From UHGV virus genome UHGV-1067530: a DNA stretch of 33,600 nt, one strand, 5' to 3'. The notes below the pieces were generated by a model. That model saw only the letters and a program-made list of their open reading frames with translations, did not search any database and was not told where the DNA came from. This document shows positions 3,121-15,169 of this stretch, in pieces. This stretch comes from a virus. Position 1 is the stretch's first letter; the number at the start of each line of letters is the position of its first letter. Made by a program: the position numbers and the translations under genes.

Positions 3121-3192
3121 ATCTACTCTCCAGAAACTAAAAAGGGAACTACCTCTCGATAGCTCCCATCATAATCAGTTTTGTATAATTGG

Positions 3193-3774
3193 TCAAGAGT
3201 ATTTTTTAGGCAGTAATGCACTGCGCTTGTTACTCTCTTCACTCAATAGTGCAATGAAATCATCACTTTTACCTTTCCACGGGCTAAATGAAGGGATATG
3301 CTCACGGATAGCCTCAATCACTGTTTTAAGTGCTGTGTTCTTCATCCACCAATCAGAATCTGCTGATGCTACCACGTAGTAGCCACCATCATCAGTTAAA
3401 ATTGGCTCTGAAATACATGGTGAAATCAAAGTGGTAATAATTGAACCATTGTTCATGTAGTATGTACGCTTAATAACCTTTTCAAGAAGCTTGTGAAGGT
3501 CACCAAATAGTGTTACAAGTTCTTTGTGGTCAATATCTTTTTCGAGGTTTGCTCGATACTTCAATAGTGCAGCATCAACCTCTCTGTCATTGAACTTGAA
3601 ATATTGAACTTCATCAACAAGGCAAACACTGATGTTGTTAACATTCATAGTCAGCTTGCAAACTTTTGCAGGAGAGTTGATGCTTGGTTGAAAAAGTGCA
3701 ACACACCCTTCAATATTCCCAAAGTGTTGTACAAGTGTTACTTGTGGAATGATATCCTGTTGCTCTTCGGACAT
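3193..3774 (-). CDS. hypothetical protein (193 aa)
   Basis: ORF in early-block context. Confidence 0.5.
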   Translation of the reverse strand: MSEEQQDIIPQVTLVQHFGNIEGCVALFQPSINSPAKVCKLTMNVNNISVCLVDEVQYFKFNDREVDAALLKYRANLEKDIDHKELVTLFGDLHKLLEKVIKRTYYMNNGSIITTLISPCISEPILTDDGGYYVVASADSDWWMKNTALKTVIEAIREHIPSFSPWKGKSDDFIALLSEESNKRSALLPKKYS

Positions 3775-5706: not shown

Positions 5707-6338
5707 TATGCCTCCCCTGCTGGGTTAACAGTAACTGTTGCCACATTAGATGTTACAGAGCCACCTGCGCCAGTAACTACACAGGTGTAGCTTCCTGAAT
5801 CAGCAGCGGTTGCACCTTCTTTGGTGTAAGTTGCAGTAGTTGCATCGAGGATATCTTCCTCACCTTTCTTCCACTGGTAACCTGTCGCACCTGTTGCCGC
5901 AACATTCAGCGTTAAGGTCTCACCTTCAGTGATTTCTTGATTGGTTGGCTGCTGAGTGATTGCTGGTGGCTTGATAGCATCCTTCAACTTAGCATTCAAC
6001 ATTGAGAACGGCTTAACCATTGCCAGCCATTCACAATAAATTGTATCAACGTCTTTACCATTGATAATTGCATATTGTAAGTCCATGAAGAAGTCAGAAG
6101 TTCTCATTTGAGCACCGATGCTGTAAAGCAACTCATCACTAAATGGGACTTTGTAGTCTGGTTTGTAGTCAAACTCCTCAACTTCTGCAATATCAGCTTC
6201 AGGCCAATACGAACTATAGGTAAGTGGTAAAATAGCCTCTTGATATGTTCTAAAATCATATCTCTTACCAGCTTTTACGTTTGCAATGAAGCCCTTCACA
6301 AACTCTTTGAAGTCTGGGTAAGTCTTTGCTTTAATCAT
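5706..6338 (-). CDS. hypothetical protein with C-terminal Ig-like domain (210 aa)
   Basis: C-terminus (ITQQPTNQEITEGETLTLNVAATGATGYQWKKG...SGSYTCVVTGAGGSVTSNVATVTV) reads as an Ig-like fold; N-terminal ~120 aa is paralogous to the 6335-6706 product. Confidence 0.55.
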   Translation of the reverse strand: MIKAKTYPDFKEFVKGFIANVKAGKRYDFRTYQEAILPLTYSSYWPEADIAEVEEFDYKPDYKVPFSDELLYSIGAQMRTSDFFMDLQYAIINGKDVDTIYCEWLAMVKPFSMLNAKLKDAIKPPAITQQPTNQEITEGETLTLNVAATGATGYQWKKGEEDILDATTATYTKEGATAADSGSYTCVVTGAGGSVTSNVATVTVNPAGEA

Positions 6339-6706
6339 TTCTTTTTAGCCTCTAAATGTGCGTTTAGTCTAAAATAACCTTTGTGATGCGGAGATACATC
6401 ACCAACAACAATACCTTTAACCTTATAGCCTTTACCAATTACATACTGGATATCCATAAGGAATCTTCCAAGACCAACAATATGGAACATTGGATATAAT
6501 AGATTCTCAGAATCTGGAATATTGATTTCAGGTTTGTAGGTGCGTTGTTCGCTTGTCGGTGTAATATCTTCTTCAGGCCATTTACTGAGTCTCCATGTCA
6601 AAGGTGTTGGGATAACATCATTAAGGTTGTACCTTTCACCATTTTGCACGGAATTGATATAGGATTGTAGGAAGCAATAAAAGTCTTTTGCACTCTTAGC
6701 TTTCAT
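6335..6706 (-). CDS. hypothetical protein (123 aa), paralog of the 5706-6338 N-terminal domain
   Basis: Shared motifs WPEEDI/WPEADI, YKP, MDIQYVI/MDLQYAI. Confidence 0.5.
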   Translation of the reverse strand: MKAKSAKDFYCFLQSYINSVQNGERYNLNDVIPTPLTWRLSKWPEEDITPTSEQRTYKPEINIPDSENLLYPMFHIVGLGRFLMDIQYVIGKGYKVKGIVVGDVSPHHKGYFRLNAHLEAKKK

Positions 6707-6753
6707 TAAATATCCTTATAAATAGTTAAAGGGGCATCAGCCCCTATTCACAC

Positions 6754-7344
6754 TTAAGCTTTGGTCTTAAGTAGGTTCTTAAGTTTTTTAAGATTCATGC
6801 TCTCATCAAACTTAAAACCAAATCCATTGACATAATCAATGAACTCGGATTTCTTACTGAGTGACAATGCGTAACTCATATCAAAGTTCTTACTTGTTTC
6901 TGCGTCTGGACTAGAGTTCACATCAAATGAAATTTCTGTAGGCTCTTGCTTACTTTTTCTCATATTATCAATTAACAAACATGTATAGTTTGCTGGATAG
7001 AAGTTTACACTACCATCAACGTAGCTGTACTTATTATTATGGATAAGGTTGGAAAATACCTTAAGGAATGTTTCTGAGTCGTGGCAAACAAGTTTGAATT
7101 GGCTGCTCTCTCCAAGCGCAACTAATGAGTACGGACTTTCACTATCAAAGTCATAGTTTGGATTTGATGCCGTCACTGTTACACGCATCAAGTTATTAGC
7201 AATAGTCTTCTGTTTAAAAGAATTTTGAACATAGTGAAGACCCCTCTCACACTGATTGACTAGCTCTTTAAGTAGGTCATTTGCATATGGTGAGTTAATT
7301 GATACAGAGCCGTCACTATTGTAATTAAAACTTACTGTTAACAT
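6754..7344 (-). CDS. hypothetical protein (196 aa)
   Basis: ORF in early-block context. Confidence 0.5.
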   Translation of the reverse strand: MLTVSFNYNSDGSVSINSPYANDLLKELVNQCERGLHYVQNSFKQKTIANNLMRVTVTASNPNYDFDSESPYSLVALGESSQFKLVCHDSETFLKVFSNLIHNNKYSYVDGSVNFYPANYTCLLIDNMRKSKQEPTEISFDVNSSPDAETSKNFDMSYALSLSKKSEFIDYVNGFGFKFDESMNLKKLKNLLKTKA

Positions 7345-7963: not shown

Positions 7964-8335
7964 ATGAAAAACAGAACAAACAAAGGCCAGTTTAAAAAAG
8001 GCCAGTCTGGAAACCCATCTGGAAGACCAAAAGGCTCTCGTAACAAAAGCTCACTCGTAAAAGCTCAACTGACCATTGATAATTCTGCTGAGTTTGCTGC
8101 AAAGTTGTTTGAAGCGATTGTTACAAGGGACGCTGCTAAGCTTGCAGAGTTCGGGTTAAACACAGACGACGTAACCATCAAGAGCATGATTGAGGTCGGT
8201 AAAACTATCATGACCCACTCAGCAGGTGAGATGAAAGCAATTGCAGCAGATACTAAGAAGACTCCTGATAACAGTAGTCAGTCTCAGACAGAAAACAAAC
8301 CAACGTTCTCTGCTGTTGCAACTCTCAAAAAATAA
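7964..8335 (+). CDS. hypothetical basic protein with N-terminal GQSGNPSGRPKGS motif (DUF5681-like)
   Basis: KGQFKKGQSGNPSGRPKGSRNK motif recalled from phage DUF5681-type proteins; not verified by search. Confidence 0.5.
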   Translation: MKNRTNKGQFKKGQSGNPSGRPKGSRNKSSLVKAQLTIDNSAEFAAKLFEAIVTRDAAKLAEFGLNTDDVTIKSMIEVGKTIMTHSAGEMKAIAADTKKTPDNSSQSQTENKPTFSAVATLKK

Positions 8336-8416: not shown

Positions 8417-9832
8417 ATGAGCGAATTATTTAAACATGCGCACCTTCATGCAGGTCGAACTGAAAATGGTGCTGTAAACCATACTTCATCAATGTCTGCT
8501 CTTGTAGACTTTTACAAAGCTGCTGGTTCAAGCCGTAGCAACGTAGAAATCTTACCAGACCTGTTCTACAAAGCTTTGCGTGAGGATGTTGATGTTGCAG
8601 TTCGTATTTTACTGCATATGCGAGATGTACGAGAAGGTATTGGTGAGCGTAAAGCCTTCAGAACTGTTTTGCTTCAAGCAATTGAAGATAAAGTTTTAGA
8701 GCCTACACAGGTTCTTCGCATTATGGATAAGATTGCAGAACTTGGTCGTTTTGATGACTTCAAAATCTTCGTAGGTACTCGTTTCGAGACAGATGCCTTC
8801 AAACATTTAGAAGCAGCATTACTAGACCCTGCAACAGCAGGTTTGGCAGCCAAGTGGCTACCACGAGTCAAACCACGTCATAAGCAGTTTGTAAAACGTT
8901 TCTGTAAGTTTGCCAACTTGAGTGAGAAAGAGTATCGCACACTGTTGTCTGCGCTCTCTGATACAGTTGAGCAAAAAATCTCTGCTAATGAGTTTGGCAA
9001 GATTGACTACAGTAAGATTCCTTCACTTGCTGCTGCACGTTACCAAAAACTGTTTAACCGCAAAGATGGAGAACGCTACAAAGCTTACATCGAGTCCTTA
9101 TCAAAGGGTGAGACTAAGATTAATGCTGGTGCTGTTTACCCATACGATGTGATTAAGTCTGTTAAGTATGGTAATGCAGATGTTGCTAATGAGCAGTGGA
9201 AAGCACTACCAAACTGGATGGCAGAGGGTGAAAACATTCTCTGTATGTCTGATGTTTCACGTTCAATGTCTTGGGTGAATTTTGGCTCCATTACTACTCT
9301 GGATATTGGTGTATCACTTGCATTGTATGTAGCAGAACGCAATACAGGTTGCTTTAAAAATGAGTTAATGGTTTACTCAACAAACCCTCACTTCATCGAA
9401 CTGAGTGGTGATTTACGAAACCGTCATCGTCAGGTGATGCGGCACGTTGAATATGGCTCAACTAACTTACAAGCAGCTTTTGACCGTATTCTTGAGACAG
9501 GTAAAAGAAATAACTTGACTCAGAAAGATATGCCAAGTAAGCTTATCATCTTCTCAGATATGGAGTTCAATCAGGTTGATGGAGCTAACGGTCGCACAAA
9601 CTTTGAAGCAATCCAGAGTAAGTACAAGAAAGCTGGATACGAAATGCCACAACTGGTATTCTGGTACTTAGCAAACCGTAATGGTACTTGCGAAGTATCT
9701 GTTAAGGATAACGGTGTAGCAATGGTATCTGGTTTCTCTCCAGCCACTTTAAAAGCTCTGCTTGGTGGTGAGAAGTTTGACCCTATCAGCGTAATGCTCA
9801 AAGCAGTAATGATTGACCGTTATATCTGGTAA
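8417..9832 (+). CDS. vWA-domain protein with N-terminal alpha-helical domain; possibly Ro60/TROVE-like (DUF2828-type)
   Basis: MIDAS motif in ILCMSDVSRSMS (DxSxS), downstream YGSTNL (T) and LIIFSDMEF (D) at vWA-typical spacing; N-terminal ~270 aa has no motif I recognise; the TROVE assignment is inference. Confidence 0.55.
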   Translation: MSELFKHAHLHAGRTENGAVNHTSSMSALVDFYKAAGSSRSNVEILPDLFYKALREDVDVAVRILLHMRDVREGIGERKAFRTVLLQAIEDKVLEPTQVLRIMDKIAELGRFDDFKIFVGTRFETDAFKHLEAALLDPATAGLAAKWLPRVKPRHKQFVKRFCKFANLSEKEYRTLLSALSDTVEQKISANEFGKIDYSKIPSLAAARYQKLFNRKDGERYKAYIESLSKGETKINAGAVYPYDVIKSVKYGNADVANEQWKALPNWMAEGENILCMSDVSRSMSWVNFGSITTLDIGVSLALYVAERNTGCFKNELMVYSTNPHFIELSGDLRNRHRQVMRHVEYGSTNLQAAFDRILETGKRNNLTQKDMPSKLIIFSDMEFNQVDGANGRTNFEAIQSKYKKAGYEMPQLVFWYLANRNGTCEVSVKDNGVAMVSGFSPATLKALLGGEKFDPISVMLKAVMIDRYIW

Positions 9833-9850
9833 AAAGTTTTAAAAAGGGTA

Positions 9851-9879
9851 TTGACAATGTGTTTGATACCCTTTAATAT
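9851..9879 (+). promoter_or_regulatory. Putative sigma70-like promoter heading the tRNA array
   Basis: TTGACA (9851-9856), 17-nt spacer, TAATAT (9874-9879); the -35 sits inside the inverted repeat GGGTAT...ATACCC. Confidence 0.45.
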
Positions 9880-9941
9880 GTTCTACATAGAAACGAAACG
9901 AGAGCTTTTCTAAGATACTGAAAAATATTTTAAAAAAGTTC

Positions 9942-9971
9942 TTGACAATCACTAAAAAATAATGTTAAAGT
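9942..9971 (+). promoter_or_regulatory. Putative second promoter upstream of tRNA-Pro
   Basis: aaaaaagttcTTGACA, 18-nt spacer, TAAAGT; same architecture as the 8348 promoter. Confidence 0.35.
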
Positions 9972-9997
9972 GGTTACATAGAGTTTGAAAAGTTTAT

Positions 9998-10074
9998 CTC
10001 TGTTTAGCTCAGCTTGGTAGAGCGTTCCGTTTGGGGCGGTAAGGCCGGAGGTTCAAGTCCTCCAACAGAGACCA
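9998..10074 (+). tRNA. tRNA-Pro (anticodon TGG)
   Basis: Acceptor CTCTGTT/AACAGAG, D-arm GCTC/GAGC, anticodon loop TTTGGGG, T-arm GGAGG-TTCAAGT-CCTCC, encoded CCA. Confidence 0.8.
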
Positions 10075-10081
10075 AATTAAT

Positions 10082-10159
10082 GTTCCAGTAGACAAAATGG
10101 TATAGTCACCACTCTTTCAAAGTGGATATTTGAGGGTTCAAATCCCTTCTGGAACGCCA
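10082..10159 (+). tRNA. tRNA-Glu (anticodon TTC)
   Basis: Acceptor GTTCCAG/CTGGAAC, anticodon stem CCACT/AGTGG, loop CTTTCAA, T-loop TTCAAAT, CCA. Confidence 0.8.
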
Positions 10160-10162
10160 GTT

Positions 10163-10239
10163 TTGACAGAAGACCAATTACAGCAAACTTAATCTTATTC
10201 ATCTGAAGGTAAATCGGACAAAGAAGAGATTTGGTCTGG
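10163..10239 (+). repeat. Inverted-repeat-bounded element, copy 1 (TTGACAGAAGACC-AA-TTACAGCAA ... TTGGTCTGG)
   Basis: 5' box CAGAAGACC + TTACAGCAA, 3' box GGTCTGG; termini AGACCAA/TTGGTCT are complementary. Confidence 0.6.
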
Positions 10240-10251
10240 TCATTAAGAATT

Positions 10252-10327
10252 GCGGGTATAGAGAAAGGGCGTCTCACATGTCTCATTAGCATGGTATCGG
10301 CAGGTTCGACTCCTGCACCCGCCTCCA
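10252..10327 (+). tRNA. tRNA-Met/Ile2-like (anticodon CAT), slightly irregular acceptor/T-stem register
   Basis: Acceptor GCGGGTA, D-arm GAGA/TCTC, anticodon stem CATGT/GCATG, loop CTCATTA, T-arm GCAGG-TTCGACT-CCTGC; 3' strand ACCCGCC pairs with a 1-nt offset. Confidence 0.5.
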
Positions 10328-10329
10328 AA

Positions 10330-10397
10330 TTTACAGAAGACCGTTTACAGCAATATTTATTAAATTTTTAGCGGAAAAATTGAAAGATGTGGTCTGG
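10330..10397 (+). repeat. Inverted-repeat-bounded element, copy 2 (TTTACAGAAGACCGTTTACAGCAA ... GGTCTGG)
   Basis: 5' 27 nt identical to copy 4; internal AT-rich hairpin AATTTTT/AAAAATT. Confidence 0.6.
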
Positions 10398-10410
10398 TAA
10401 TACTAAACAT

Positions 10411-10487
10411 GGTTAGGAAGCACATAAGGTATGTGCGGTCGCCTGTTAAGCGAATGGCACAGGGTTCGAATCCCTGACTAACCGCCA
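10411..10487 (+). tRNA. tRNA-Asn (anticodon GTT)
   Basis: Acceptor GGTTAGG/ACTAACC, D-arm GCAC/GTGC, anticodon loop CTGTTAA, T-arm CAGGG-TTCGAAT-CCCTG, discriminator G, CCA. Confidence 0.75.
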
Positions 10488-10556
10488 AATTTAGGAGAGA
10501 AGCGATTGCTCACCGATTTGTAAGGTGCAAGTCCTTAGCCTGAATAGAAATTAAAT

Positions 10557-10644
10557 GTGTCGTTATCCCGTAGATGGTAGCGGTGGGGACTGTAAATCCC
10601 TTGTCATTGAGACTCGGTAGGTTCGACTCCTACACGGCACACCA
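10557..10644 (+). tRNA. tRNA-Tyr (anticodon GTA), long variable arm
   Basis: Acceptor GTGTCGT/ACGGCAC, anticodon loop CTGTAAA, ~15-nt variable arm, T-arm GTAGG-TTCGACT-CCTAC, CCA. Confidence 0.7.
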
Positions 10645-10649
10645 ACAAA

Positions 10650-10727
10650 GGTTATGTAGTTTAATTTGGTTAAAATACTCCCCTGTCACGGGAGATGATG
10701 AGGGTTCAAATCCCTTCGTAACCGCCA
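10650..10727 (+). tRNA. tRNA-Asp (anticodon GTC)
   Basis: Acceptor GGTTATG/CGTAACC, anticodon stem CTCCC/GGGAG, loop CTGTCAC, T-loop TTCAAAT, CCA. Confidence 0.75.
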
Positions 10728-10788
10728 ATTTTGAGAGGGCTATTTAGCCCCTCCCTTAAAGAGTTCTTACGAGTATTCTTTAAAGGAG

Positions 10789-10862
10789 CAGAAGACCAAA
10801 TACAGCAAGTTACTTAAAATTTCAAGCCAATTTAATTTTGAAAAATTTAAAACTTGGTCTGG
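10789..10862 (+). repeat. Inverted-repeat-bounded element, copy 3 (CAGAAGACC-AAA-TACAGCAA ... TTGGTCTGG)
   Basis: Same terminal boxes; interior is a long AT-rich imperfect hairpin (CAAGTTACTTAAAATTTCAA / TTGAAAAATTTAAAACTTG). Confidence 0.6.
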
Positions 10863-10871
10863 CTCAACAAA

Positions 10872-11006
10872 TTTACAGAAGACCGTTTACAGCAAAACTT
10901 AAACAATCTATTTCTCGGTAAAGAAAAGGAGAAGGTTCGATTCCTTCACTCGGCAGGTGTCGAGTTGGTGTAATGGTAGCACTTAAGATGATAAACAACG
11001 GTCTGG
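10872..11006 (+). repeat. Inverted-repeat-bounded element, copy 4 (TTTACAGAAGACCGTT ... AACGGTCTGG), containing tRNA-like fragments
   Basis: 8-bp terminal complementarity AGACCGTT/AACGGTCT; interior holds a T-arm (GAAGG-TTCGATT-CCTTC) followed by a D-arm-like segment. Confidence 0.6.
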
Positions 11007-11007
11007 T

Positions 11008-11151
11008 AATTATCTTTGTAGATAAGTTATTAAGCTTACCTGTGAGTATGCGACCACAAAGGGTGAAAGGGTAAATTCTAGATTTAAACCCAAAAAGGCA
11101 CATCGCTACAGACCTTAAGCAAGTCTGGGTAGCTTATCTACAAAGATAATT
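11008..11151 (+). repeat. 19-bp perfect inverted repeat (AATTATCTTTGTAGATAAG / CTTATCTACAAAGATAATT) flanking 106 nt
   Basis: Read directly: 11008-11026 is the exact reverse complement of 11133-11151; the interior contains CAGACC...GTCTGG. Confidence 0.7.
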
Positions 11152-11155
11152 TAAT

Positions 11156-11231
11156 GGAAGTGTAGCAGAATGGTGATGCGGCAGACTTTTAATCTGACAG
11201 GCGATGGGTTCGAATCCCTCCACTTCTACCA
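11156..11231 (+). tRNA. tRNA-Lys (anticodon TTT)
   Basis: Acceptor GGAAGTG/CACTTCT (G1-U72 wobble), anticodon loop CTTTTAA, T-loop TTCGAAT, discriminator A, CCA. Confidence 0.7.
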
Positions 11232-11235
11232 ATAT

Positions 11236-11312
11236 GGTTCAGTCGCAGATAAGGTAATGCAAGGGTCTCATAAGCCCTATGAATGTGGGTTCGATTCCCA
11301 TCTGAACCTCCA
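11236..11312 (+). tRNA. tRNA-Met or Ile2 (anticodon CAT)
   Basis: Acceptor GGTTCAG/CTGAACC, anticodon stem AGGGT/GCCCT, loop CTCATAA, T-arm TGGG-TTCGATT-CCCA, CCA. Confidence 0.75.
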
Positions 11313-11314
11313 AT

Positions 11315-11389
11315 TGTGGGTTAGCATAAATGGTAATGCAAACGGCTGATAACCGTTAGAAGAGGGTTCGATACCCTCACCTACAACCA
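11315..11389 (+). tRNA. tRNA-Ile (anticodon GAT)
   Basis: Acceptor TGTGGGT/ACCTACA, D-arm GCA/TGC, anticodon stem AACGG/CCGTT, loop CTGATAA, T-arm GAGGG-TTCGATA-CCCTC, CCA. Confidence 0.75.
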
Positions 11390-11404
11390 ATTTCAATAAA
11401 GTTG

Positions 11405-11433
11405 TTGACATTGAGATGTGACTACTTTATAGT
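11405..11433 (+). promoter_or_regulatory. Putative sigma70-like promoter inside the tRNA array
   Basis: aaagttgTTGACA (11405-11410), 17-nt spacer, TATAGT (11428-11433). Confidence 0.45.
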
Positions 11434-11439
11434 AACTAA

Positions 11440-11726
11440 AATACTTCAGAATATGTATAATTCAAACACCAATACATGAGCGTTAGACGTAACACAATGT
11501 GGGGAAATTTGTTGTACATATTCTGAATAGTTTTCGTTGCGTAGCGTCTATTTTGCAAATTTAAAATAAATGCAAACGACAATGTTTTTCTGGCAGTAGC
11601 TTGATAGGCTAAACACCAGTGAGGTCTTCCAATCCCTCATCAAAGAATTTGGCGTACTAGCCCACGGTATGATTAATAAGGTGGGCATCTTTAAGGGCTT
11701 TCTAAGAGAGTCTTTAAAGATAATTA
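11440..11726 (+). ncRNA. Candidate structured non-coding RNA region (ORF-free, multiple hairpins)
   Basis: No ORF of 60 aa or more; 13-bp perfect inverted repeat TTCAGAATATGTA (11445-11457) / TACATATTCTGAA (11515-11527); hairpins GCCCAC...GTGGGC, TGAGG...CCTCA, TTTGCA...TGCAAA; sits downstream of the 11405 promoter. Confidence 0.35.
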
Positions 11727-11808
11727 CGGGGCGTATCTCAGCGGTCTTCTAAACCGCCGTTAACCGAGTAAGTGGAGTATGCGGGTTCGAGTCCTGCCGC
11801 CTCGACCA
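11727..11808 (+). tRNA. tRNA-like, Arg(TCT)-type anticodon arm, atypical (no canonical D-arm, 23-nt segment before the T-arm)
   Basis: Acceptor CGGGGCG/CGCCTCG, anticodon stem GCGGT/ACCGC with loop CTTCTAA, T-arm GCGGG-TTCGAGT-CCTGC, discriminator A, CCA; the D-arm 3' strand is not identifiable. Confidence 0.45.
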
Positions 11809-11950
11809 ATTAGTTAGCAGATTACTTAGACGACCTAAGCGGGTCTTCCTGTAGGGAGGTGGTCTGTATCTCATGTTTTCCAGAACATGTAAATAATCTG
11901 AGAAGGGGCTTTACAGTGTTGAGATAATACGGTAAGCTTCGAATTATAGT

Positions 11951-12033
11951 ATGGGACGATGTTAAGACTCTAAGGCATGAGCAACGGCTTCCAACACCGT
12001 TTCAAAGGGGTTCAACTCCTCCGTCCCATGCCA
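11951..12033 (+). tRNA. tRNA-like, Trp(CCA)-type anticodon loop, atypical (7 extra nt in the D region)
   Basis: Acceptor ATGGGAC/GTCCCAT perfect, hairpin ACGGC-TTCCAAC-ACCGT, T-arm AGGGG-TTCAACT-CCTCC, discriminator G, CCA; D region is 26 nt. Confidence 0.4.
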
Positions 12034-12046
12034 AAGTCTTATTAGG

Positions 12047-12134
12047 GGTAGGTAGCGGCTAATGGTAGCCAAACTGTCTTGAAAACAGTTGCCACTGTAG
12101 AGATACGGTGAGGGTTCGACTCCTTTACTTACCG
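12047..12134 (+). tRNA. tRNA-Ser (anticodon TGA), long variable arm; CCA not encoded
   Basis: Acceptor GGTAGGT/ACTTACC, anticodon stem ACTGT/ACAGT, loop CTTGAAA, ~20-nt variable arm, T-arm GAGGG-TTCGACT-CCTTT, discriminator G. Confidence 0.7.
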
Positions 12135-12137
12135 CCT

Positions 12138-12391
12138 AATAAGATTTAAAGCCAAGCTTCATTCGGATGTCGCTTTGGTATCCCGCGTGTATTGTCGTAC
12201 ACACTGATAAAACACCTAGTAGGTGTCACGGAGAAGAGATAATATCAAGCTCTCCAAAGGTTCTAGTCACCGGATTAAACAAGACTATGCAAAGACCTTT
12301 TTAGGTCTTTTTAGAGGGCTTCTAAGGTTATTACAGCTTGTTGTGGAACCTTGTTGCTTAGGTTCTTAGAAGTTCTCTAAAAAGATTTAAT
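12138..12391 (+). ncRNA. Candidate structured non-coding region (hairpins, terminator-like stem, long CTTCTAAG/CTTAGAAG hairpin)
   Basis: ORF-free; hairpins GTGTA...TACAC, ACACCTA...TAGGTGT, GGAGA...TCTCC; AAAGACC-TTTTT-AGGTCTTT followed by a T-run (about 12288-12312); inverted repeat CTTCTAAG (12320) / CTTAGAAG (12365). Confidence 0.3.
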
Positions 12392-12469
12392 GGGAGATTG
12401 ACGGTAATTGGTAAACCTACCATCCTTAGAAGTTGGTGTTTGAGGGTTCGAATCCCTTGTCTCCTACCA
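12392..12469 (+). tRNA. tRNA with Leu-type anticodon TAG but short (5-nt) variable loop
   Basis: Acceptor GGGAGAT/GTCTCCT, anticodon stem CCATC/GTTGG (one U-U), loop CTTAGAA, T-arm GAGGG-TTCGAAT-CCCTT, discriminator A, CCA. Confidence 0.55.
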
Positions 12470-12476
12470 AATTAAT

Positions 12477-12552
12477 GCAGGTGTAGCAAAATGGTTATGC
12501 GGCTGACTCTTAATCAGTAAGACGATGGGTTCAATTCCCTCCACCTGTACCA
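12477..12552 (+). tRNA. tRNA-Lys (anticodon CTT)
   Basis: Acceptor GCAGGTG/CACCTGT, anticodon stem GCTGA/TCAGT, loop CTCTTAA, T-loop TTCAATT, discriminator A, CCA; close paralog of the 11156 tRNA. Confidence 0.7.
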
Positions 12553-12558
12553 GACATT

Positions 12559-12634
12559 TGGGTCATAGTTTATATGGTTAAAATTCGAGTTTTGCAAACT
12601 TGGGAACTGAGTTCAATTCTCAGTGACTCCACCA
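12559..12634 (+). tRNA. tRNA-Ala (anticodon TGC)
   Basis: G3-U70 wobble present in the acceptor (TGGGTCA/TGACTCC), anticodon stem CGAGT/ACTTG, loop TTTGCAA, T-arm CTGAG-TTCAATT-CTCAG, discriminator A, CCA; 1-72 is unpaired (T/C). Confidence 0.7.
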
Positions 12635-12640
12635 ATTAGT

Positions 12641-12715
12641 GCATCCATAGTTTAAACGGGAAAATTACAGTCTTCCAAACTGAGGTTGAGGGTTCGATTC
12701 CCTCTGGATGCTCCA
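12641..12715 (+). tRNA. tRNA-Gly (anticodon TCC)
   Basis: Acceptor GCATCCA/TGGATGC perfect, anticodon loop CTTCCAA, T-arm GAGGG-TTCGATT-CCCTC, CCA. Confidence 0.75.
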
Positions 12716-12721
12716 AACAAT

Positions 12722-12798
12722 GCTGCTTTCGTATAATTGGCTATTACACATCCCTTGTAAGGATGGAAATGCAGGTTCGAGTCCTGTGAGCAGCACCA
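12722..12798 (+). tRNA. tRNA-Thr (anticodon TGT)
   Basis: Acceptor GCTGCTT/GAGCAGC, anticodon stem CATCC/GGATG, loop CTTGTAA, T-arm GCAGG-TTCGAGT-CCTGT, discriminator A, CCA. Confidence 0.8.
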
Positions 12799-12799
12799 A

Positions 12800-12893
12800 T
12801 TCAGAGGTCAAGTGAAAGACCGCTGGTGTCAACTGAAGACCGTAACAAATTCCACGGAGTTGAGTTAGCGGCACAACTTCAGACCTCTTTCAC
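12800..12893 (+). repeat. Repeat/palindrome-rich spacer related to the CAGAAGACC element family
   Basis: CTGAAGACCGTAACA (12836-) resembles the 5' box; AGAGGTC...GACCTCT and CTGAAG...CTTCAG inverted repeats. Confidence 0.4.
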
Positions 12894-12968
12894 ACTCGCT
12901 TAGTTTATATGGTAAAACATCACCCTTACAAGATGAAGAAAAAGGTTCAAGTCCTTTAGTGAGTACCA
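12894..12968 (+). tRNA. tRNA-Val (anticodon TAC)
   Basis: Acceptor ACTCGCT/AGTGAGT, D-stem GTTT, anticodon loop CTTACAA, T-arm AAAGG-TTCAAGT-CCTTT, discriminator A, CCA. Confidence 0.65.
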
Positions 12969-12969
12969 T

Positions 12970-13047
12970 GTTCCAGTATCCCAATTGGCAGAGGATGCAA
13001 GCTCAAACCTTGTATTAGTGACGGTTCGAATCCGTCTTGGAACACCA
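12970..13047 (+). tRNA. tRNA with Leu-type anticodon CAA but short (6-nt) variable loop
   Basis: Acceptor GTTCCAG/TTGGAAC, D-loop AATTGGCAGAG, anticodon stem TGCAAG/CTTGTA with loop CTCAAAC, T-arm GACGG-TTCGAAT-CCGTC, discriminator A, CCA. Confidence 0.55.
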
Positions 13048-13065
13048 ATTTAAAGAGGCTATTTA

Positions 13066-13623
13066 ATGAGATATTTGAAGTATGCTTCATGGATTTTCTT
13101 AGCTTTACTAGACCCAATTGCAGCAATCCTAGCAGTTATCTTAGCACCTTTCGTAGTTCCATTCTACAGTGAGAAGAAAGGACATCTACCTTTTGGATTC
13201 AGATGGATGGAGACCTATGACAACCCGATTGATGGTGACGAAGGTCACGTTAAAAGATGGGCTAAGATTAGAAAGATTGGTAAGCTGGGTGTCTACATGC
13301 AGAGAGTTGGGTGGCTCTGGAGAAACAAAGCTTATAACTTCTCTTACCATGTATTAGGAAGAGATGTAAAAGATGTTACTAAGTGGAGAGGTAATATCAA
13401 CGTAAGTTCTGACCCTGAAGATAATCAGACTGGTTATCTCCTAATGTGGAACAACAATGCTTGGGGATTATTCGCTTTTATTCCGTCAATTAAAGTCTTT
13501 GGTAAACAGTTTTACTGGAGAATTTATGTTGGATGGAAACTAAAAAGTGTTGTCCCAGAAGAAAGAGCATTCTCAAGGGAAAGAGTTATGTTGGCATTCT
13601 TTATTCATCCACTGAGAAAGTAA
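13066..13623 (+). CDS. hypothetical membrane protein (185 aa) embedded in the tRNA array
   Basis: ORF with RBS aaagagg upstream; N-terminal hydrophobic helix WIFLALLDPIAAILAVILAPFVVPF; Trp/Arg-rich remainder. Confidence 0.6.
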   Translation: MRYLKYASWIFLALLDPIAAILAVILAPFVVPFYSEKKGHLPFGFRWMETYDNPIDGDEGHVKRWAKIRKIGKLGVYMQRVGWLWRNKAYNFSYHVLGRDVKDVTKWRGNINVSSDPEDNQTGYLLMWNNNAWGLFAFIPSIKVFGKQFYWRIYVGWKLKSVVPEERAFSRERVMLAFFIHPLRK

Positions 13624-14074: not shown

Positions 14075-14809
14075 ATGAAAGAGATGACAGGACAAGGTAA
14101 GGAGATTTTTAATCTCTTAAAAACCGGTAAAGGGTTTTCTAACCCACTTATTACTGGTGCAGCAGTTCTCGGTGGAACCGTAGCTGCCTCTACATCACTT
14201 GTAAGCTCTATTAGCTCTGTAACAGACCCGACAATGAATGAGAAACTTGTTGCTGCTGGACTTACAACAGTCCTTCTAAACAGCTTTACAACAAGCCTGA
14301 CAAGCACTACAGCAACTACTAAGACCCTAACAGACTATGGTCAAAAGTCTATTGATGAGTTTTCATCACGTATGCAGGTAGCAAAGGGGTATTCCAATGT
14401 TATGGGTGCAGCAGGAGAACAAGTTGGTTGTACACCATTCAGTGGTATTATGGGTGTTGCTACAGAGTATGGTCAAAAAGCTATTGACATGATTAACAGC
14501 ACACTAGACAGTGTTAACGGTGTGTTAAGTGACTTACAAGACGCTATTGATAAGGGTCTTGATACTGTTTCTGATTTAGCTAATCAAGCTGTTAGCAAGA
14601 TTAATGAAGGTATCTCAAAGATTACAGCTTATGCAGATGAAGTTGTGCAGATGATTGAAGAAGAAGCTGCCCTTATTGCAGAGTACCTTAAAACGAATAT
14701 CAATGGGTTCTTAGCAGGTATCTTACCAGACTGGTTTGATGATGCTCGCAAAACTGGTGTAATCGACACTATTGCAACACCAGAAATGAAGAACGCATTA
14801 CAGAAATAA
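14075..14809 (+). CDS. hypothetical Ser/Thr-rich protein (244 aa)
   Basis: The ORF track starts at 14012 inside tRNA-Phe; first ATG with an upstream aaagg RBS is 14075 (MKEMTGQ...); S/T-rich N-half, helical C-half. Confidence 0.55.
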   Translation: MKEMTGQGKEIFNLLKTGKGFSNPLITGAAVLGGTVAASTSLVSSISSVTDPTMNEKLVAAGLTTVLLNSFTTSLTSTTATTKTLTDYGQKSIDEFSSRMQVAKGYSNVMGAAGEQVGCTPFSGIMGVATEYGQKAIDMINSTLDSVNGVLSDLQDAIDKGLDTVSDLANQAVSKINEGISKITAYADEVVQMIEEEAALIAEYLKTNINGFLAGILPDWFDDARKTGVIDTIATPEMKNALQK

Positions 14810-15080: not shown

Positions 15081-15145
15081 ACAGAGTTATACTTTATAGG
15101 AAGACTTATACAGTATGTCTCTGACGTACATTGTGGTTTCTCCTT

Positions 15146-15169
15146 GACGGTCTCTGTGCCGTCTTTTTT
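15146..15169 (+). terminator. Putative intrinsic terminator or attenuator upstream of the packaging operon
   Basis: Stem GACGG/CCGTC with loop tctctgtg, followed by TTTTTT. Confidence 0.45.

Follow-up and report, generated by a model that had tools for sequence, protein, structure and literature searches.

In the 33,600-nucleotide stretch of the virus genome UHGV-1067530 that was analysed here (the window), four related elements lie among the tRNA genes of the phage, and we consider it probable that they encode small non-coding RNAs of the Y RNA kind, which would serve the Ro60-like protein of the gene just upstream at 8417-9832. The proposal is carried by the anatomy of the elements, a tRNA-like domain in one of them, the Ro60-like fold predicted for the neighbouring protein, the wide and strand-specific co-occurrence of such elements with this protein family, and a terminal stem that covaries between phages. 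An initial annotation of the region had named small structured RNAs as one option among several; this option is supported, and it can now be specified as Y-RNA-like partners of the adjacent gene. The elements very probably represent a widespread family of Y-RNA-like small RNAs that was previously undescribed; the literature on DUF2828, PF11443, UCP015417 and Ro-like phage proteins together with Y RNA yielded no description of these RNAs, and no Rfam family matches the elements at its gathering score.

Four copies with a shared 5' box and mutually complementary ends had been described at the outset, and an exact pattern scan combined with the closing complements confirmed them. The 17-base pattern CAGAAGACCNNNTACAGCAA matches exactly at 10167, 10334, 10789 and 10876, on the + strand only, where 0.10 matches are expected from shuffles and none of 100 shuffles reached four. 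No further match was found anywhere in the 33.6 kb, even when three mismatches were allowed. Every copy is closed by the complementary NGGTCTGG, followed by GG. The elements are the following:

10167-10239 (+ strand): element 1, short type; 5' strand AGACCAA at 10171-10177, box TACAGCAA at 10179-10186, 3' strand TTGGTCT at 10231-10237, then GG; tRNA-Glu and tRNA-Met on either side.
10334-10397 (+ strand): element 2, short type; 5' strand AGACCGT at 10338-10344, box at 10346-10353, 3' strand GTGGTCT at 10389-10395; tRNA-Met and tRNA-Asn on either side.
10789-10862 (+ strand): element 3, short type; 5' strand AGACCAA at 10793-10799, box at 10801-10808, 3' strand TTGGTCT at 10854-10860; downstream of tRNA-Asp.
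10876-11006 (+ strand): element 4, long YrlA-like type; 5' strand AGACCGTT at 10880-10887, box at 10888-10895, 3' strand AACGGTCT at 10997-11004.

All copies have the same layout: a terminal stem of 7-8 base pairs begins with (A)AG, the 3' strand ends with CU and is followed by G, and the box U[A/U]CAGCAA stands unpaired, exactly 8 nucleotides after the stem-opening A. The stem of element 2 contains two G.U pairs, and relatives carry ACGGTCT as its 3' strand. Copies 2 and 4 are identical over 28 nucleotides (CAAATTTACAGAAGACCGTTTACAGCAA), one more than the 27 that had been noted. The interiors differ between copies and are A/T-rich, as the initial annotation stated; as for its description of them as hairpins, the folding energies of the single copies are unremarkable (z-scores of -0.2 to -2.6), so that the evidence lies in the conserved ends and not in thermodynamic stability. 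The further boxes noted as related at about 11840, 11907, 12290, 12340 and 12836 are not members, since in none of them is the box combined with the stem geometry; the sites at 12290-12340 and 12836 fall in other structured spacers of the cluster. At about 11110 a box-like loop does exist, but it belongs to a hairpin inside a separate structured RNA (11006-11155) and not to an element of this kind.

The permuted tRNA-like domain of copy 4, which is described below, and the key gene just upstream of the elements had both been overlooked. The latter can be summarized as follows:

8417-9832 (+ strand): gene of the Ro60-like RNA-binding protein, 471 amino acids; Pfam DUF2828 and DUF7788; phrog_850 (PHROG 850), 'RNA-binding protein'.

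Its stop codon lies 335 nucleotides before copy 1, and the elements start 335-1044 nucleotides past it on the same strand. The AlphaFold2 model of the protein, computed from a 34-sequence alignment, reached a predicted local distance difference test score (pLDDT) of 85 and a predicted template modelling score (pTM) of 0.84. When this model was compared with the PDB by Foldseek, the top 11 matches were all Ro60/Rsr/TROVE structures, among them the Ro60 of Thermus phage phiLo, and they were aligned over the full length with E values of 3e-8 to 4e-7 and template modelling (TM) scores of 0.5-0.66; the next-ranked matches cover the vWA domain only. The predicted fold is Ro60-like over the full length of the protein. 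Homologues were detected by tblastn in 710 phage records, those of mycobacteriophages (33% identity) carrying the annotation 'Ro-like RNA binding protein', and DUF2828 proteins also occur in plants and in mimivirus-like sequences. No NCBIfam model matched the 8417-9832 protein. Its closest characterized counterpart here is gp130 of phage Bas63 (bas63_0130), with 458 of 471 residues identical (97%), and all four elements are present in Bas63. This protein counters the ppl defence, rescues T7 on ppl and boosts T7 when transplanted (PhageMaP). The PhageMaP authors noted its Ro60 fold and guessed that Y RNAs might be among the tRNA genes, but identified no such RNA.

The association was examined across phages on 80 viral-contig loci that were fetched with their homologues of the gene, 75 of them distant (40-47% protein identity). 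In these 75 loci the bare 8-mer T[AT]CAGCAA, counted with no pairing criterion and without imposing a G at position -7, has a density of 49.6 per 100 kb on the gene strand up to 1.5 kb from the gene, versus 6.5-10.3 elsewhere, which is a five- to eight-fold enrichment near the Ro-like gene and on its strand. A G at position -7 precedes 98 of the 106 gene-proximal same-strand boxes; the proportions are 1/55, 3/22 and 0/9 in the classes without members. The less clean classes gave 5/10 on the opposite strand inside the gene and 17/36 on the same strand beyond 1.5 kb, and the latter value suggests that further true members exist beyond this distance. The complete arrangement of stem, box and stem was found near the gene in 54 of the 75 loci (36 per 100 kb versus 2.2-3.3 in other intergenic classes). 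The search for complete elements relied on explicit scans for pattern plus pairing, controlled for strand and location. A covariance model made from elements with trimmed ends did not bridge the long variable interior and mis-paired the 3' strand, and it was dropped.

The stem sequences are unrelated between phages (AGACCAA/TTGGTCT, GGACTGT/ACAGTCC, AGAGCAC/GTGCTCT, TGGTTCC/GGAACCA, AGGATAG/CTATCCT); constant features are the geometry and the box, the G at -7, a U-A pair halfway along the stem and a trailing G (51/54). The initial annotation had proposed looking for covariation over related phages, and changes on both sides were indeed seen at all 7 stem pairs. Among closer relatives, elements occupy syntenic sites, with G.U-containing variants among them: four in Mooglevirus, three in Yersinia phage P778 and at least three in an 88-kb contig. 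Of the distant phages, Mycobacterium phage Snenia has three beside the gene (one of them tRNA-like), Staphylococcus phage 6ec three, Listeria phage List-36 three, with an RtcB ligase gene near, and Campylobacter phage F370 two; a 149-kb metagenomic phage repeats the architecture of the window with the gene, four elements and 19 tRNAs. No element was found on either strand of the T5 tRNA region, 24 kb in which there is no DUF2828 gene. In eight unrelated viral contigs the Felixounavirus-type pattern matched once each, with no closing stem nearby, and these matches look like chance.

The same comparisons bear on a reading of the copies as elements acting at the DNA level, either miniature inverted-repeat mobile DNA or recombination sites, as the initial annotation also suggested, or targets of homing endonucleases. 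Terminal inverted repeats in several copies would fit such elements, the tRNA region of relatives has been invaded by HNH endonuclease genes, and the number of exact-pattern copies does range from 3 to 4 among relatives, a comparison that the initial annotation had proposed; what looks like a loss, however, comes down to a single changed base in the box (TGCAGCAA in Bas63). All copies have a single orientation, their positions are syntenic between Felixounavirus and Mooglevirus, with the same tRNA genes on either side, and the flanks contain no target-site duplication or direct repeats. The G.U pairs of the stems (GTGGTCT in copy 2; AGGCC/GGTCT and AGACTGT/ACGGTCT in Moogle) would be A.C mismatches on the other strand. 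Moreover, it is the 'inverted repeat' whose sequence varies between phages while the internal box is fixed, and the elements track one protein gene through unrelated phages. A DNA-level role is consequently regarded as extremely improbable.

The elements are embedded in the phage tRNA cluster, which holds 24 tRNA genes, + strand throughout. Over bases 9800-13100 the window shows 100% identity to Salmonella phage Mushroom (Felixounavirus, NC_041923, reverse strand), and 95-99% identity to Felix O1 and many Escherichia coli and Salmonella relatives. Two promoter matches precede the cluster:

9851-9879 (+ strand): sigma-70-like promoter match ahead of the tRNA/small-RNA cluster, 10/12 in a consensus scan only.
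9942-9971 (+ strand): second sigma-70-like promoter match ahead of the cluster, likewise 10/12 in the consensus scan.

On the + strand past the hairpin at 9843-9874, the first terminator-like sites are a weak one at 14132 and then 15113-15163. If the elements are Y-RNA-like genes, the promoters at about 9850-9970 would drive their transcription together with that of the tRNAs. Since only 4-13 nucleotides separate the elements from the flanking tRNAs, release by the enzymes that excise tRNAs would be the simplest route: RNase P would cut where the next tRNA begins, RNase E and 3' exonucleases would follow, and the exonucleases would halt at the terminal stem. Three short RNAs of about 60-70 nucleotides and one of about 125 nucleotides would result.

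The position between tRNA genes, in one probable transcription unit in which other spacers are strongly structured too, could suggest that the elements merely punctuate the polycistronic tRNA transcript, as hairpins that guide the cuts of RNase III, E or P or protect the ends and have no function as free RNA. This option, the processing hairpins of the initial annotation, survives as a weak rival, and we judge it very unlikely. A processing hairpin needs neither an invariant unpaired box of 8 nucleotides nor a tRNA-like domain, and the T5 tRNA cluster does without elements. In many distant loci, furthermore, the elements stand by the Ro-like gene with no tRNA nearby (locus L132 has 0 tRNAs), and in Staphylococcus phage 6ec three of them lie between two protein-coding genes, the nearest tRNA being about 1.4 kb further on.

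The most elaborate interior is that of copy 4, which contains a domain equivalent to a tRNA read from the anticodon stem onward:

10898-10987 (+ strand): tRNA-like domain in circularly permuted order, with variable arm, T arm, closed acceptor hairpin and finally D arm.
10898-10902 (CTTAA) with 10983-10987 (TTAAG) (+ strand): analogue of the anticodon stem, 5 base pairs.
10907-10930 (+ strand): long hairpin in the position of the variable arm.
10931-10947 (+ strand): T arm GAAGGTTCGATTCCTTC, containing the canonical GGTTCGATTCC.
10948-10965 (+ strand): closed acceptor hairpin ACTCGGC-AGGT-GTCGAGT with a 4-nucleotide loop.
10968-10982 (+ strand): D arm GTGTAATGGTAGCAC, with U8, A14, G18G19 and A21 positioned as in tRNA.

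The minimum-free-energy fold of this interior is a four-way junction, and the acceptor hairpin differs in sequence in Moogle and Sf16 with its pairing preserved. ARAGORN found nothing in copy 4 in its native order; it does call a tRNA when the two halves are put into tRNA order and the sequence is supplied with CCA and an artificial anticodon loop, which indicates that the arms are tRNA-like, though the test is contrived. Across 10876-11006 neither ARAGORN nor Rfam (RF00005) calls a tRNA, and there is no canonical cloverleaf order with an anticodon arm. Copies 1-3 have no tRNA-like domain, in this respect like YrlB. Long variants are present in many genomes, commonly one in each, and in several genomes they have the T arm, the closed acceptor hairpin and the D arm; an RNAalifold analysis of ten of them recovered both the T arm and the closing stem, which show compensatory changes. 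Two long variants match the Rfam YrlA family RF02553, that of locus L012 with 39.1 bits (E 4e-5) and that of Snenia with 39.3 bits (E 3e-5); both E-values are significant, but the scores stay under the gathering score of 69. In the permuted tRNA genes of Cyanidioschyzon merolae the 3' half likewise precedes the 5' half, as the T arm and 3' acceptor strand of copy 4 precede its 5' acceptor strand and D arm. Copy 4 differs from them in having no anticodon arm, encoded CCA or bulge-helix-bulge, while a 4-nucleotide AGGT loop closes its acceptor; it is a mimic inside a larger RNA, and as it lacks an anticodon arm and CCA, the possibility of a working permuted tRNA gene was rejected.

Among known RNA systems, that of Ro60 and its Y RNAs is the best functional fit. 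Y RNA genes described so far lie on the strand of the Ro60 gene, no more than about 4 kb from it, and some of the RNAs are tRNA mimics (PMC4201824, Chen et al. 2014), the domain order of the bacterial YrlA being V-T-AS-D (PMC4201824), and the Ro60 of phage phiLo binds two adjacent Y-like RNAs, Yrl1 and Yrl2 (PMC12135203). With YrlA and YrlB (RF02553) and with phiLo Yrl1/Yrl2 the elements share the location near, and on the same strand as, the gene of a Ro60-type ring protein, the paired 5' and 3' ends forming a stem beside a conserved unpaired motif, and the occurrence of one RNA per genome with a V-T-AS-D tRNA-like domain and closed acceptor stem, plus shorter YrlB-like companions. In copy 4 this order of variable arm, T arm, closed acceptor and D arm lies inside the paired ends. 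Several RNAs cut from one precursor are a further common feature, for which processing of the elements would have to follow the route proposed above. With the metazoan Y RNAs and Ro60 the common points are a Ro60-fold ring, small RNAs, paired ends that carry, or here would carry, the binding determinant, and a loop as the variable effector module; the differences are that no sequence similarity exists, that in metazoans a bulged helix (GGUCCGA) serves as the site, and that those RNAs are polymerase III transcripts and not processed from an operon.

The elements differ from YrlA in that the partner belongs to Pfam DUF2828/DUF7788 and not to TROVE, in that no element reaches the gathering score of RF02553, and in that the RNAs sit within an array of 24 tRNAs; the CGAA motif was not found in the intergenic elements of relatives. 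Three points place the elements outside YrlA as it is currently defined: the family to which the protein belongs by sequence, the lack of the CGAA motif and scores under the Rfam threshold. Several observations weigh against the interpretation as Y-RNA-like partners of the Ro60-like protein. The known bacterial and phage Y RNAs carry the motif GNCGAAN0-1G (CGAA) near the 5' end, whereas all four copies have U[A/U]CAGCAA there, and copy 4 does not match Rfam YrlA even at E<=10. Pfam TROVE does not match the 8417-9832 protein, in which only DUF2828 and DUF7788 were detected at E<=0.01, and neither phmmer nor a profile search with this protein retrieved a Ro60 of the PDB by sequence, so that the likeness to Ro60 is visible from the predicted fold alone. 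No box was found within 1.5 kb of the gene in 17 of the 75 distant loci, and the percentage of paired cells in the stems is a circular measure, since the elements were chosen for pairing. Finally, Bas63 gp130 alone, expressed from a plasmid or from T7, suffices against ppl; the RNAs are thus not strictly needed for this activity, unless host RNAs substitute for them.

The short elements also bear a close resemblance to another group of RNAs. Kjellin et al. 2021 (PMC7919456) define the Class I RNAs of Dictyostelium by a length of about 60 nucleotides, a covarying terminal stem of 6 base pairs, an 11-nucleotide motif beside the 5' strand, and terminal sequences of AAG at the start and CUGU at the end; in the same study they are reported as unique to Dictyostelia, the direct binder that was demonstrated is an RNA recognition motif (RRM) protein, and three further proteins were pulled down. 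The short copies of the window similarly consist of a stem, UUACAGCAA and CUG in about 60 A/U-rich nucleotides. In both groups the terminal stem joins the ends and keeps its structure but not its sequence (7-8 base pairs here), the unpaired motif comes right after the 5' strand (Rfam consensus CCUUACAGCAA, window (A/G)(A/U)UUACAGCAA), the remaining RNA is variable, and the genes are clustered. The Class I ends AAG and CUG(U) compare with GAAG...CUGG(U) in the DNA of the window and with a consensus of AA[A/U]G...C[U/A]G in other phages. Five positions of the 11-nucleotide motif are near-invariant (T3, C6, C9, A10, A11), and copies 1, 2 and 4 (AATTACAGCAA or GTTTACAGCAA) fit all of them, while copy 3 (AAATACAGCAA) has A at position 3. 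The Class I family RF01414 is the sole Rfam family that matches all three short copies, over the whole model, with 21.2 bits for element 2, 19.7 bits for element 1 (a weak match) and 15.3 bits for element 3; the best score in a distant phage is 28.8 bits, below the gathering score of 41.5. In the phage elements the stem-opening G is one nucleotide closer to the box. They are of phage origin and have no Dictyostelium upstream sequence element (DUSE) promoter, which in dictyostelids lies about 60 nucleotides upstream, but stand behind sigma-70-like promoters in a tRNA operon, and the direct partner in Dictyostelium is the RRM protein and not a Ro-like one. That the phage RNAs with the stem and U[A/U]CAGCAA and the Class I RNAs are one ancient family, a dedicated ligand of the DUF2828-type Ro60-like proteins, is a proposal that we put forward tentatively and consider doubtful. 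If it were true, a second branch of Ro proteins would have its Y RNAs in the Class I RNAs, these would not be confined to social amoebae, and a DUF2828 protein would be their missing partner; the near-identity of the short form to them offers a concrete hypothesis for an orphan eukaryotic class of RNA.

The loci of distant phages contained further features. An interior hairpin UUGA-CUUUUAA-UCAA is common to short elements of three unrelated phages (L034 5801-5859, L050 5754-5817, L008 9799-9858); it looks like the anticodon arm of tRNA-Lys(UUU) and may be a decoy for anticodon nucleases. Among the neighbours of the Ro-like gene there are RtcB, a T4 Rnl1-type RNA ligase and a metallophosphoesterase (L088, which is List-36, 5810-7021; L132 3279-4391 and 6842-7555), and these neighbours place the gene in a context of RNA repair.

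Such features could also be accommodated if the RNAs were stand-alone decoys or sponges, independent of the Ro60-like protein: mimics of tRNAs or anticodon loops would soak up host anticodon nucleases or tRNA-modifying enzymes, or Class-I-like RNAs would bind some other protein, for instance a host RRM protein, and the adjacency would reflect only a shared 'RNA conflict' neighbourhood. Copy 4 is a tRNA mimic, some distant short elements have the hairpin resembling the tRNA-Lys(UUU) anticodon arm, the ligases and the metallophosphoesterase are found at distant loci, gp130 is effective against ppl without the RNAs, and the demonstrated direct binder of a Dictyostelium Class I RNA is the RRM protein. 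The invariant part of the elements, however, is the stem with the box and not the mimic module, and it follows one protein family through the phages of Actinobacteria, Firmicutes, Campylobacter and Proteobacteria, usually at a few hundred nucleotides from the gene and always on the same strand. This pattern is what is expected of a specific protein-RNA pair, and an independent decoy function therefore appears unlikely to us.

Ribozymes and large structured RNAs are known in phage tRNA arrays, and it might be asked whether the elements are self-cleaving ribozymes or another known class of structured RNA flanking tRNAs. A ROOL RNA was indeed detected near the Ro-like gene of List-36 (L088 1426-1977, 91.5 bits with a gathering score of 99.1, about 1 kb upstream of the gene). 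No ribozyme family of Rfam matches the elements even at E<=10, and their conserved core of a stem and an unpaired 8-mer is too small for known catalytic folds, which leaves this explanation with hardly any probability. CRISPR-repeat mimics, retron msr/msd and terminators were rejected on anatomy (reverse transcriptase gene, repeat similarity and U tract were absent).

Under the preferred interpretation as Y-RNA-like partners of the Ro60-like protein, expression as discrete RNAs, processing, protein binding and function are what we infer from these comparisons. The ends of each RNA would pair (5' AG-N5-6 ... N5-6-CU 3', then G) and expose the single-stranded U[A/U]CAGCAA beside the stem, and stem and box together would form the docking site for the Ro60-like ring. 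The variable interior would act as the effector module, which in element 4 takes the form of a permuted tRNA mimic comparable to that of bacterial YrlA, and it could recruit enzymes of tRNA handling or of RNA decay and repair, or gate the cavity of the protein. Such a ribonucleoprotein would probably function in the surveillance or repair of RNA, and in counter-defence, in the course of infection.

It should be mentioned that the tRNA cluster contains more non-tRNA structured RNA than the four elements. Right after element 4, the separate conserved RNA at 11006-11155 (+ strand) has a closing stem of about 24 base pairs, a folding z-score of -6.3 and compensatory changes relative to Mooglevirus. 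Inside it lies the hairpin CAGAC-CUUAAGCAA-GUCUG (11109-11127), the counterpart of which in Moogle has the stem AAACC/GGUUU and a preserved loop (CUUUAGCAA); as the stem has changed while the loop was kept, this loop resembles the box of the four elements. Strongly structured spacers between tRNAs were found on the + strand at 12301-12390, 12803-12889, 10488-10556 and 10728-10788, one of them a long hairpin with a z-score of -5.2 and the others with -2.6 to -3.1. A near-consensus promoter, TTGACA-17-TATAGT, is located at 11405-11433 (+ strand) within 11400-11726, and the approximately 300 nucleotides after it contain no called gene and give only weak tmRNA-like matches in Rfam. Two tRNA-like sequences follow on the + strand: that at 11727-11805 is uncalled by ARAGORN, scores 31.7 bits as an Rfam tRNA and corresponds to the tRNA-Arg(TCT) of relatives, and that at 11949-12038, which no tool calls, has a cloverleaf with a 10-base-pair acceptor stem, a 9-nucleotide 'anticodon' loop and a GCCA end.

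Directly ahead of the Ro-like gene there is a DUF5681 gene at 7964-8335 (+ strand). Felix O1 has the same placement, Mooglevirus and Yersinia phage P778 have an equal-sized small open reading frame at this position, and the DUF5681 gene may be a further component of the module. On the minus strand of Bas63, the small 'hypothetical protein' open reading frames bas63_0137 and bas63_0138 have been annotated across elements 3 and 4 and the structured RNA next to them (Bas63 locus 3149-3423), and in the GEC_vB phages eight such minus-strand frames are annotated in the same region; they are probably spurious.

The analysis thus names candidates for the RNA partners which the authors of PhageMaP merely suspected for Bas63 gp130, and with these candidates in hand the proposed ribonucleoprotein becomes directly testable in a tractable E. 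coli phage. It outlines a compact RNA family, built of a stem, an 8-nucleotide box and a swappable module, that is captured by no Rfam model and whose regions are often mis-annotated with spurious small open reading frames. Every sampled phage group has elements by the partner gene, namely the Felix O1-type phages, the Pecentumvirus List-36, the Staphylococcus, Campylobacter and Mycobacterium phages and the large metagenomic ones. If the interpretation is correct, the partnership of Ro and Y RNAs, together with its tRNA mimicry, would extend to a second branch of Ro60-like proteins, unrecognisable by sequence and using a different recognition motif.

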